The notes beneath the pieces were generated by a model that was not told the DNA's origin, searched no databases, and saw nothing but the letters and a program-made list of their open reading frames with translations. This document shows, one piece after another, positions 15 through 695 of a stretch of DNA of 700 nt. The translations under genes and the position numbers were made by a program. Source of the stretch: Escherichia coli (GTDB lineage Bacteria > Pseudomonadota > Gammaproteobacteria > Enterobacterales > Enterobacteriaceae); the NCBI RefSeq assembly GCF_003334255.1, contig NZ_QOWU01000198.1. One strand, 5' to 3'. Each line of letters begins with the position of its first letter. Position 1 is the first letter of the stretch.

Positions 15-695
15 TTACCCCTGCCGCCCGATAACCACGACCTTTCCGCCCCCGCCTTCATCACGGGTACTGATGTCCTGGGATATACGGCGGGAGCCAA
101 CCAGCATTTCCCCGTAAGGCACCGGCATCGGGTTACCCTGGGCAATCATGTTGTCCAGTGACGAAAAGTACGTGTTCTGTCTGCCGTTATCCGTTGCGCG
201 GTAATCCGGTGTTTTTGCCTTCGGGGCCAGCATCTGGGCCACACCGCCCAGAATCATGCTGGCTCCAAGTGAAAACAGCATCGTGGTGGCAGAAAAACCA
301 CCGGCTGCCAGGGCTGAACCCCATAACGCCATCGAGGCACCGGCAGTGAGGAAAGAGCCCACGATGGCTGCCGCCCCCAGCACAATCTGCAGTCCACCCT
401 TTCCGGCCCCGGCCAGTCGCGGCACAATGTGGATGACCGTTCCCTCACCCAGCTGTTCGTGAAGACGGGCGTACACCGCCTCCGGTGCCGTGTCATCACC
501 GGCAATACGTATCTGGTACCAGCCTTCGTTCATCTGACGGCGAAAGCCCGGCATCTGCATCGACAGGGCGCGGATGGCTTCCGCTGCCGTGTTCACATAC
601 AGGCTGAGGCGGCGGCCAAATCGTTGTAAATCCCCGTGAAGGCAGATGCGTGCCAGTGGCGGTGACGCCAGACAGAATGCGTTCGTCGTTGCCAT
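15..695 (-). CDS. I: Lambdoid phage tail tip assembly protein I (lambda gpI family). ATG at 695..693, TAA stop at 17..15, 226 aa. Residues ~19-101 form the N-terminal soluble domain ending in GAGKGG, residues ~102-158 are a Gly/Ala-rich hydrophobic segment, and residues ~159-226 are the conserved C-terminal region.
   Basis: Seen in sequence: a single uninterrupted 681-nt frame on the minus strand covers nearly the whole window, with codon usage (CTG, GCC, CGC, GGC) consistent across it. From memory of the lambda gpI sequence, the translation shares extended motifs with it: GDLQRFGRR, NTAAEAIRALS, PGFRRQMNEGWYQ-RIAG, IHIVPR-AGA, QIVLGAAAI-GSF, FSLGASM-LGGVAQMLAPKA, QNTYFSSLDNM-AQGN and VVVIGR. 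The length (226 aa) is close to the 223 aa I recall for lambda gpI. No search was run. Confidence 0.9.
   Translation of the reverse strand: MATTNAFCLASPPLARICLHGDLQRFGRRLSLYVNTAAEAIRALSMQMPGFRRQMNEGWYQIRIAGDDTAPEAVYARLHEQLGEGTVIHIVPRLAGAGKGGLQIVLGAAAIVGSFLTAGASMALWGSALAAGGFSATTMLFSLGASMILGGVAQMLAPKAKTPDYRATDNGRQNTYFSSLDNMIAQGNPMPVPYGEMLVGSRRISQDISTRDEGGGGKVVVIGRQG

Follow-up and report, generated by a model that had tools for sequence, protein, structure and literature searches.

A lambda gpI ortholog in an Escherichia coli prophage: ubiquitin-like domain, hydrophobic helices and plug region, with a maturation scheme based on homology

Gene I and the 3' end of gene K

The window, the whole 700-nucleotide stretch of E. 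coli DNA that we analysed, carries on one strand a complete gene I and, overlapping its beginning in another frame, the end of gene K (Table 1). Judged by its sequence, the longer ORF is a real, conserved gene whose product is an ordinary copy of the lambda gpI ortholog from a lambdoid E. coli prophage. A phmmer search of PDB sequences aligned residues 1-224 with lambda gpI (8iyk_I; E=1.3e-94), and the Pfam check that the earlier note had proposed for the N-terminal domain returned Lambda_tail_I (PF06805) over residues 15-97 with an E-value of 3.6e-16. The protein also matched the tail-protein PHROGs 4244 (3e-87) and 32 (6e-79), and its gene is about 97% identical at the nucleotide level to genes annotated as 'tail tip assembly protein I' in lambdoid and Stx phages. 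Profile match and full-length similarity together place it in the lambda gpI/TAPI family (PF06805 plus TAPI-C), which has 3271 representatives at 50% identity; DNA matching the window was present in 3315 of 5426 complete E. coli genomes, with most of the window covered in 2416. NCBIfam contained no family for I, Rfam gave no match anywhere in the window, and profile scans for related loci (P0088, P0129) found no viral loci.

Table 1 Features of the window and their coordinates.
Feature	Position	Strand	Basis or remark
Gene I (tail tip assembly, 'insertion' or plug protein)	15..695	minus	226 codons, stop 17..15; ORF list
3' end of gene K	593..700	minus	Last 35 codons, stop 595..593; overlaps the first 34 I codons in another frame
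Ubiquitin-like beta-grasp domain, residues 14-92	420..656	minus	AF2 and Pfam
Ubl tail and linker RLAGAGKGG, residues 93-101	393..419	minus	Both candidate cleavage positions inside
Candidate site G96-A97	410..405	minus	
Candidate site G100-G101	398..393	minus	
Predicted hydrophobic helix H1, residues 102-128	312..392	minus	AF2 helix 101-128, low-confidence monomer
Predicted hydrophobic helix H2, residues 137-156, core motif LGASMILGGVAQML	228..287	minus	AF2 helix 137-156
C-terminal structural region, residues 159-226	18..221	minus	Aligned to lambda plug and gpJ-threading beta-strands

Coordinates were checked against the translation: residue 19 of I lies at 641..639, and LAGAGKGG occupies residues 94-101 (416..393) with its Gly-Gly at 398..393, exactly where the earlier note had placed them. 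The other ORFs on both strands (21-83 aa) were taken as shadows of the I and K frames because they are without independent support. Also rejected was a GTG start of I at Val34, annotated in some phages, which would remove from the N-terminal domain its first two strands and its first helix, since the confidently modelled domain would thereby lose the invariant G21 and the at least 90% conserved L23 and G27. Public phage records in which I begins at Val34, or in which K is cut down to its C40 domain, are annotation errors that conceal the pairing of a ubiquitin-like (Ubl) domain with a JAB domain.

Translation of the minus strand from position 700 ends in EKWQRRTHSVWRHRHWHASAFTGIYNDLAAASACM and a stop codon, identical to the C-terminus of K of phage PhiR5_1 (97% identical), in which the genes run H-M-L-K-I-J-lom; I thus occupies the tail-operon position expected from the order H-M-L-K-I-J. 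K of PhiR5_1 contains a Prok-JAB domain (PF14464) at residues 3-105 (7e-15) and an NLPC_P60 domain at 111-224 (1e-12), in agreement with the earlier note, which had described the neighbouring K protein as carrying a JAB/MPN domain. A K homolog adjoins I in all 150 loci having an upstream flank, and 39 of 40 non-redundant K sequences contain HxH...SxxD. Across 26 K-I pairs, E19, H68, H70 and D81, together with C121, H187, H199 and H200, are invariant. Because the window holds just 35 codons of K, the intact E...HxH...S..D metal site of the adjacent JAMM domain is judged on these related K proteins. By Foldseek, modelled K matched P. furiosus JAMM1 in two structures, that of the enzyme by itself (5ld9) and its chain in the SAMP2 complex (5lda), in addition to CSN5, Rpn11, AMSH and NlpC/P60 hydrolases; a search by sequence found no solved K structure, its sole match being the uncharacterised JAB-like NMR structure 2kks. 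In at least one prophage, a near-identical I gene accompanies a K whose JAB half is disrupted.

The ubiquitin-like domain, its tail and proposed processing by K

The AF2 model of I has a pLDDT of 95-98 across residues 11-90 and contains strands at residues 14-19, 29-33, 60-64 and 87-92 and helices at 21-26, 37-47, 51-57 and 71-78. This is the beta-grasp fold that had been suggested for residues 19-101; in the model, however, the domain begins near residue 14, and a boundary at 19 therefore loses strand 1. The closest structural matches are SAMP1, MoaD and CysO, and the domain, a plain ThiS/MoaD beta-grasp, has no hydrolase features. Four residues past the last strand is a glycine, G96, that is conserved in 67 of 69 diverse homologs. 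Among the annotated neighbours of I in 15 phage loci there was no E1-like adenylase, and the glycine is internal until cleavage, with no free C-terminal carboxylate; the domain therefore has the fold of the modifier and sulfur-carrier family without the modifier role.

Within the tail, G96 belongs to a motif, P92-x3-G96-[A/S]97, of which P92 is kept in 68 of the 69 homologs and position 97 is Ala, Ser or Gly in 63, so that PxxxG[A/S] is the conserved element. Its distance from the last strand resembles that of Gly75 of ubiquitin. The earlier note had singled out the visible di-glycine as exactly where a JAB peptidase would be expected to cut and had made its case depend on conservation of that pair across I homologs; the pair is not kept as such, G101 being present in 62 of the 69 sequences and G100 in 24. 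The linker from G96 to G101 varies in length, and in an Erwinia-phage-type variant clade (PSVEGAIVGAIII) PxxxG[A/S] is retained and the KGG linker is absent. A weak profile match (E=1.3) sets G96 opposite residue 89, the penultimate residue, of the 90-residue CysO chain. The rarity of G100, the conservation of G96, the CysO alignment and the KGG-less clade thus do not support the di-glycine as the exact cut, and the relevant site may be PxxxG96-[A/S]97, not the visible Gly-Gly. A cut there would leave the Ubl with a Gly-Ala/Ser terminus, which is unusual for a JAMM substrate.

That the JAB domain of K instead cuts exactly after Gly100-Gly101, as at a ubiquitin-style di-glycine terminus, is possible but in our estimate somewhat unlikely. 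In favour of such a cut, besides the frequency of G101 itself, are the start of helix H1 at residue 101 in the AF2 model, the drop of pLDDT below 50 exactly from residue 101 in a K-I co-fold, and the description of lambda gpI in the closed tip as resolved 'from position 101 onward' (PMC11101478). The last point also counts the other way, as a mature chain produced by this cut would lack residue 101, yet residue 101 is described as resolved; and the conservation pattern, linker length, CysO alignment and variant clade set out above all count against it.

Release of the Ubl by the JAB domain was predicted by Iyer, Burroughs and Aravind in 2006, who described a TAPI Ubl whose C-terminal Gly is conserved, TAPK as a JAB plus NlpC/P60 protein, and JAMM-Ubl pairing as recurrent in prokaryotes (PMC1779556); the earlier note had cited this work correctly. 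For lambda, a meeting summary that gives neither site nor data states that gpK, through its deubiquitinating domain, cleaves the Ubl off gpI only once gpI engages the tip complex (PMC12908700). It is the only account that our search found of gpK cleaving gpI, with no primary paper or preprint. In the F-pyocin, the N-terminus of the homolog PA0640 is missing from mature particles and present in stalled precursors, and when PA0640 is produced recombinantly on its own, E. coli proteases take off the N-terminus (bioRxiv 10.64898/2026.02.24.707460). The virion mass spectrometry of Xiao et al. contains one gpI peptide (9.9% coverage) whose position is not given and is uninformative on the N-terminus. 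By analogy with the lambda and F-pyocin homologs, we infer that this copy of I would be processed in the same way.

When K and I were joined by a linker and modelled by AF2, pTM was 0.72, compared with 0.46 for I alone, and residues 95-97 became a short strand. The co-fold was read from pLDDT, pTM and secondary structure only, which cannot place the tail in the JAMM site, and it is a hint of docking, not a test.

Two other fates of the domain bear on this reading. Cryo-EM authors call the N-terminal domain unresolved or 'unseen' and not absent, and Ge and Wang speculate that it might be the missing cell-wall enzyme (PMC11101478); it might thus stay in the virion as a flexible domain with its own infection role, such as peptidoglycan cleavage. 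We regard retention as quite improbable given a plain beta-grasp fold, the cleavage by gpK stated in the meeting report (PMC12908700), the F-pyocin mass spectrometry, which sees the N-terminus in stalled precursors only, and the JAMM peptidase co-encoded in 150 of 150 loci. The Ubl could alternatively be removed by the NlpC/P60 cysteine peptidase of K or by a host protease: both domains are always present in K, the Cys-His-His residues are invariant, and E. coli proteases do trim recombinant PA0640. The meeting report nevertheless credits the deubiquitinating domain (PMC12908700), JAMM-Ubl pairs are a recurrent prokaryotic theme (PMC1779556), and K and I find their nearest structural relatives in JAMM1 and SAMP-type Ubls, respectively, a known enzyme-substrate pair; together these points make another peptidase very unlikely. 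Removal of the Ubl by the JAMM domain of K remains the preferred reading.

Hydrophobic helices and the C-terminal region

Directly after the Gly-Gly is a hydrophobic stretch, LQIVLG...QMLAP, that the earlier note had put at about 55 residues; the stretch is real and measures 57 (residues 102-158; 392..222), with 13 Ala, 9 Gly, 9 Leu, 6 Ser and zero charged residues. Its Kyte-Doolittle 19-residue maxima of 1.69 (residues 100-118 and 106-124) and 1.66 are just above the usual cut-off of 1.6 and hence borderline, and a crude Hessa-type insertion sum was +1.6 to +2.9 kcal/mol. In published analyses, TMHMM called two transmembrane helices in lambda gpI (PMC11101478, PMC7291167) and was also positive for its F-pyocin counterpart.

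The stretch had been described as a glycine zipper. It contains three GxxxA motifs and no GxxxG or GxxxGxxxG, and its 13 small-xxx-small spacings are at the level given by composition (12.6 expected, P=0.51; 20,000 shuffles of the same 57 residues). Conserved small residues are instead spaced i, i+7 (107/114/121, 144/151 and 146/153) and not i, i+4. In H1, G107 is invariant, position 114 is small in 97% and position 121 in 78%; in H2, G144 and G151 are invariant and positions 146, 150 and 153 are small in 88-93%. The pattern of conservation thus indicates that heptad stripes of small residues, not a glycine zipper, organise the stretch.

In the closed lambda tail tip, this segment forms the helices H1 and H2 in the lumen, resolved from residue 101; once the tip has opened on LamB, they are gone (PMC11101478). 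Reports on the virion place the helices around the coiled coil of the tape measure protein, within a cone of soluble protein (PMC11101478, PMC10721106); gpI residues 135-223 have been modelled there, of which 137-152 are highly hydrophobic (PMC10721106). Insertion of H1 and H2 into the outer membrane at infection is a proposal of the authors (PMC11101478, PMC12617516), and for this copy too it is a hypothesis. Membrane association during tail tip assembly, which the earlier note had entertained, does not agree with this picture, in which the lambda helices are sequestered in the lumen and insert, as proposed, at infection (PMC11101478). Its alternative, oligomerisation, was right insofar as gpI is a trimeric plug.

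A true glycine-zipper (GxxxGxxxG) membrane channel of the VacA, prion or MscL type would share with the segment its richness in Gly, Ala and Ser and the invariance of G107, G144 and G151, and it would accord with the two transmembrane helices called by TMHMM in lambda gpI (PMC11101478, PMC7291167) and with the proposed membrane insertion (PMC11101478, PMC12617516). It is highly improbable given the lack of either zipper motif, small-residue spacings at chance frequency, conservation at i, i+7, and the reported position of the helices encircling the tape-measure coiled coil inside the soluble cone.

From H2 onward, residues 137-223 align with the 90-residue, virion-resolved gpI chains of 9e7m (E of about 1e-38), and this alignment identifies a conserved plug and strand region. 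G187 and G195 are invariant, and F177, N182, Q186, P191, Y194, G200 and S205 are conserved in at least 90%. The region is coil in the monomer AF2 model. For lambda, the published structures assign residues 159-175 to the plug and show beta-augmentation with gpJ (PMC11101478, PMC10721106), the virion form of gpI being a trimeric plug in the tail tip (PMC11101478, PMC10721106, PMC12617516).

Interpretation and comparison with known systems

I is a protein of three parts: a Ubl (about residues 14-92) with a PxxxG[A/S] tail, two helices (about 102-128 and 137-156) and a C-terminal plug region. The best explanation of the whole, and one that we consider highly probable, is the I gene of a lambdoid prophage with the overlapping 3' end of K, encoding this three-part protein and acting by a mechanism based on homology. 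From lambda and the F-pyocin, full-length I would join the nascent tip complex of J, L and K, after which the JAMM metallopeptidase of K would remove the Ubl by cutting within the tail at 93-101, a step that could serve as an assembly checkpoint. Some 125-130 residues would be left to form a trimer in the virion, with H1 and H2 packed in the lumen round the C-terminal coiled coil of the tape measure protein, thereby retaining it. Upon receptor binding the tip would open, the plug disassemble and the hydrophobic helices be freed, possibly to insert into the outer membrane. Our own analysis establishes the identity of I, its fold and conservation, the pairing with K and the intactness of the motifs in close relatives; cleavage, virion location and tip opening are taken from the literature on the homologs, and this copy would be expected to behave likewise.

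Published accounts date from 2006 for the Ubl fold, the neighbouring JAB domain and the prediction of cleavage, from 2020 and 2023-2024 for the two hydrophobic helices, and from 2025-2026 for cleavage itself; as one of the commonest E. coli prophage genes, moreover, I carries little weight as a discovery. The useful refinements are that the conserved element of the tail is G96 in PxxxG[A/S] and not the eye-catching Gly-Gly, and that the helices have heptad stripes and not a glycine zipper, both of which bear on the design of lambda cleavage-site and helix-packing mutants. A further idea, which we think improbable, gives the JAMM domain of K and the freed Ubl another function, that of countering Bil-type ubiquitin-like conjugation by the host, a defence that targets the central tail fibre J. 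If so, K could strip the host Ubl from J, as Hor et al. have already speculated, or the phage Ubl could act as a decoy.

Among characterised proteins the closest is lambda gpI (223 aa; 8IYK, 8IYL, 8K35, 8XCG, 9E7M), with which I is colinear over its full length, sharing the three-part architecture, the PRxAGAxxGG tail, the helix-2 core LGASMxLGGVAQMLAPKA, the K-I overlap and the K-I-J order. The window protein differs in being about 66% identical in amino acids and three residues longer, with a two-residue insertion in the H1-H2 loop (GGFSATTM, compared with GGMTGI in lambda). In the JAMM-Ubl pairs of archaea and bacteria (P. furiosus JAMM1-SAMP2, 5LDA; HvJAMM1-SAMP; Mec+-CysO; QbsD-QbsE), a JAMM enzyme cuts a Gly-containing beta-grasp tail, as is proposed for K. 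Unlike these pairs, I has no E1 or adenylating enzyme or sulfur chemistry nearby, its tail has G-A/S and not G-G at the homologous position, and its Ubl, as part of a structural protein, would be a pro-domain that is cut away, neither modifying other proteins nor carrying sulfur.

The TAPI/TAPK description (PMC1779556) corresponds in its ThiS/MoaD-like Ubl with a conserved Gly, Gly-rich linker, TAPI-C, and JAB plus NlpC/P60 partner; in contrast to that 2006 account, the middle 'low complexity linker' is actually two conserved hydrophobic helices, and later cryo-EM places the C-terminal part in the particle (PMC11101478, PMC10721106, PMC12617516). The F-pyocin plug PA0640, which is probably PDB 25vf chain 9 from its length and name, matched with E=1.1e-13 over the full length and, by the Ubl profile, with 1.2e-11. 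Particles show its C-terminal part alone, since the N-terminal domain is removed on maturation, and its gpK homolog PA0639 is essential for the tip (bioRxiv 10.64898/2026.02.24.707460). Unlike the window I, it is a tailocin protein of distant sequence, and that study did not identify the protease. Finally, likened by description, the plug domain of phage T5 pb3, although an internal domain of a hub protein with no gene of its own, lacking both a Ubl pro-domain and a K-type peptidase, is also a trimeric plug at the same position in the tail-tip lumen, with a proposed contact with the outer membrane on opening (Xiao et al., PMC10721106).

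Gene I, its overlap with K and start codons

The protein encoded by gene I in the window aligns end to end with chain I of PDB 8iyk, the lambda 'tail tip assembly protein I' (E=1.3e-94). Its residues 15-97 correspond to Pfam PF06805 (Lambda_tail_I), and it also matches PHROG tail families. At the DNA level, annotated I and K genes of lambdoid and Stx-converting phages are ~97% identical to the window and E. coli chromosomes up to 98.9% identical. The window has a DNA match in 3315 of 5426 complete E. coli genomes, at a median of two places per genome, and an essentially identical I protein is encoded on IMG/VR prophage contigs. 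An Rfam search of the window gave no match. Directly after the I stop codon, a T-rich run at window 1..14 (A-rich on the coding strand, AAAGAATAAAAAAA) is the beginning of the short I-J intergenic region. Positions that an earlier note had assigned to residue 19, LAGAGKGG, the Gly-Gly and the hydrophobic stretch coincide exactly with the ORF translation.

Features of genes I and K in the window
Feature	Window position	Strand	Remarks
Gene I ORF	15..695	minus	longest ORF in window; 226 aa
I residue 19	641..639	minus	ORF translation
LAGAGKGG		minus	I residues 94-101
Gly100-Gly101 of I	398..393	minus	
Hydrophobic stretch of I	392..222	minus	residues 102-158
Gene K 3' end	700..593	minus	last 35 codons and stop; other frame than I
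K / I overlap	593..695	minus	103 nt, different frames; spans first 34 codons of I

The K and I genes of the lambda-like phage HK630 likewise overlap in different frames, and the gene order in PhiR5_1 is H-M-L-K-I-J-lom. The I ATG lies 13 nt downstream of the end of an SD-like GGGAGAGG, a rather long distance, so that expression may be low or depend on translational coupling. Judging from the conserved G21, L23 and G27 and from the fold, the ATG at 695, inside K, would be the start of full-length I. Some GenBank records begin gene I at an internal codon, as in PhiR5_1 (locus L001 of our K-I collection, 4513..5094; start GTG = Val34), and the entry for vB_EcoS-689R5 (L144 1636..2148) has 170 aa. 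With a start such as Val34, the ubiquitin-like beta-grasp domain (Ubl) would lose its first helix and its first two strands, including the invariant G21, and the internal starts in these two records are probably mis-annotated. The HK630 record (L143 838..1600) gives K as a 'C40 family peptidase' of 199 aa (1004..1603), an entry so short that the JAMM domain goes unseen.

K and I do not overlap in Mannheimia phage 535AP2 (L146 1254..1489), HK446 (L149 1215..1479; HK022/HK97 type) or Pseudomonas phage CF53a (L153 788..1428), where one or two small ORFs lie between them, together with an annotated rho-independent terminator in 535AP2 and HK446. Some database proteins (P0005, P0010, P0046, P0047 and P0059) are longer chains with the I sequence at their C-terminal end; in one example of 382 aa, I occupies 209-382. 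A PHROG profile with 399 positions (phrog_28576) likewise contains I, at 193-393, and residues 74-210 of I are matched by phrog_31, the J family profile. K-I or I-J fusions of the kind noted by Iyer et al. could account for these long proteins and profiles, as could frameshift artefacts arising from the overlap.

The Ubl domain, K and the candidate cut site

Using an alignment of 69 diverse full-length homologs (30-59% identity), AlphaFold2 (AF2) modeled I residues ~11-90 with pLDDT 95-98, with Ubl strands at 14-19, 29-33, 60-64 and 87-92 and helices at 21-26, 37-47, 51-57 and 71-78. This predicted fold is the same result that Iyer, Burroughs and Aravind reached in 2006 from sequence profiles. 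In that work the Ubl of the I family (TAPI) is ThiS/MoaD-like and its C-terminal glycine is conserved; the family also has a Gly-rich region and a TAPI-C domain. The K family (TAPK) comprises JAB and NlpC/P60 domains, the JAB being predicted to release the Ubl at the last glycine (PMC1779556); the earlier note described that paper accurately.

K of the 97%-identical phage PhiR5_1 contains Prok-JAB (residues 3-105) and NLPC_P60 (111-224). In our set of 156 loci from IMG/VR and GenBank phages, a K homolog adjoins I in all 150 that have upstream sequence. HxH...SxxD is kept in 39/40 non-redundant K proteins, and the JAMM residues E19, H68, H70 and D81 and the NlpC/P60 residues C121, H187, H199 and H200 are invariant in 26 K-I pairs. 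In one prophage with a near-identical I gene (L037 2102..2600), K is disrupted, leaving a 166-aa C-terminal remainder in frame without the JAB half, a state that suggests prophage decay. Joined through a 30-residue linker to I(1-160), K was modelled by AF2 with a pTM of 0.72, compared with 0.46 when I was modelled alone. The K part of this model matches JAMM1 of P. furiosus (both by itself and as the JAMM1 chain of the SAMP2 complex), CSN5, Rpn11 and NlpC/P60 hydrolases. In the I part, a short strand forms at residues 95-97, and from residue 101 on the confidence drops sharply. The model gives only a hint that the I tail may dock on K.

Among the 69 homologs, P92 is conserved in 68, G96 in 67 and G101 in 62, and position 97 is A, S or G in 63. 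G96 lies four residues past the last Ubl strand. When IHIVPRLAGA is lined up with the corresponding ends of ubiquitin (LHLVLRLRGG) or MoaD (FFPPVTGG), G96-A97 falls opposite the terminal Gly-Gly. The Ubl profile placed G96 at residue 89 of the 90-residue CysO chain, at an E value of only 1.3. The clade of Erwinia phage Midgardsormr38 type (...FVPSVEGAIVGAIII...) keeps PxxxG[A/S] and is devoid of the KGG linker. The earlier note had expected the cut at the di-glycine G100/G101, and G101 is indeed where helix H1 starts in AF2, where resolved lambda gpI begins (PMC11101478) and where confidence in the K-I co-fold is lost; however, G100 is conserved in only 24/69 homologs and the G96-G101 spacer varies in length, leaving G100/G101 the weaker candidate and G96/A97 somewhat more likely.

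Whether the Ubl is cut off, the central question of that note, is already answered in outline by the literature on lambda and F-pyocin. The gpK-gpI cleavage in lambda is work of A. Davidson's group, summarised in a report on the 2025 Conference on Bacteriophages, with gpI cleaved only once it is engaged with other proteins of the tip, so that assembly is forced to proceed step by step (PMC12908700). The F-type pyocin tip requires the gpK homolog PA0639; of the gpI homolog PA0640, only the residues from 127 onward are visible, and by mass spectrometry its N-terminal region is absent in mature particles and present in assembly-stalled mutants (bioRxiv 10.64898/2026.02.24.707460). The lambda virion is without gpK (PMC10721106), and virion models show gpI only from residue 134/135 (PMC10721106, PMC12617516); closed-state entries show it from residue 101 (PMC11101478).

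The hydrophobic helices H1 and H2

The 57-residue hydrophobic stretch has 13 Ala, 9 Gly, 9 Leu, 6 Ser and no charged residues, and the AF2 monomer places two helices at 101-128 and 137-156 with low confidence. The stretch is not a glycine zipper, as it was first read: it has three GxxxA and no GxxxG, and its 13 small-xxx-small spacings equal the shuffled expectation (12.6; P=0.51). Small residues seven apart are family-conserved in helix 1 (G107, 100%; position 114, 97% small; 121, 78%), and helix 2 has conserved small residues at G144 and G151 (100%), 146 and 153 (88%) and 150 (93%). These heptad stripes, a sequence pattern, suggest close helix-helix packing. The I proteins of Midgardsormr38 type (L137, L139, L156) are divergent and shorter: a single hydrophobic stretch (…VEGAIVGAIIIAVLSVAYSVYSAHNMKT) comes right after PxxxG[A/S], and a second helix of LGGVAQML type is apparently absent.

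Our hydrophobicity values place H1/H2 at the border of what counts as a classical TM helix; for lambda gpI (PMC7291167, PMC11101478), and likewise for the F-pyocin homolog, TMHMM gives two TM helices. In the closed lambda tip the plug is made up of residues 159-175, H1 and H2 sit above it within the cone, and the tape measure protein touches the gpI trimer through its C-terminal coiled coil (PMC11101478, PMC10721106). In the LamB-bound open state, gpI is seen only from residue 167 onward (PMC11101478), and insertion of H1/H2 into the outer membrane has been proposed (PMC11101478; echoed in PMC12617516). Oligomerisation, one role previously offered for the segment, thus proved right, gpI being a trimeric plug; the other, membrane association during assembly, is not suggested by the published lambda structures.

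Proposed mechanism and known systems

Following the literature, I would join J, L and K, and the K JAMM domain would remove the Ubl within the 93-101 tail, a step reported in the literature and for which motif integrity and synteny are shown here. The C-terminal ~125-130 residues of I would be left to form a trimeric plug, holding the tape measure protein in; this step is based on lambda, T1 and F-pyocin structures, from which we infer a trimeric plug for the window copy. On receptor binding, the tip would open and free H1/H2, as in the lambda structure, and the helices might then enter the outer membrane.

That phage DUB domains act against host Bil Ubl conjugation, which targets the central fibre, has already been voiced in print as speculation (Hor et al.). 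The features of I in the window and the proposed mechanism are already described in the literature; to these we add the conservation argument for G96 versus the Gly-Gly, the failed glycine-zipper test, the heptad pattern of small residues and the flagging of probably mis-annotated I and K starts in public records.
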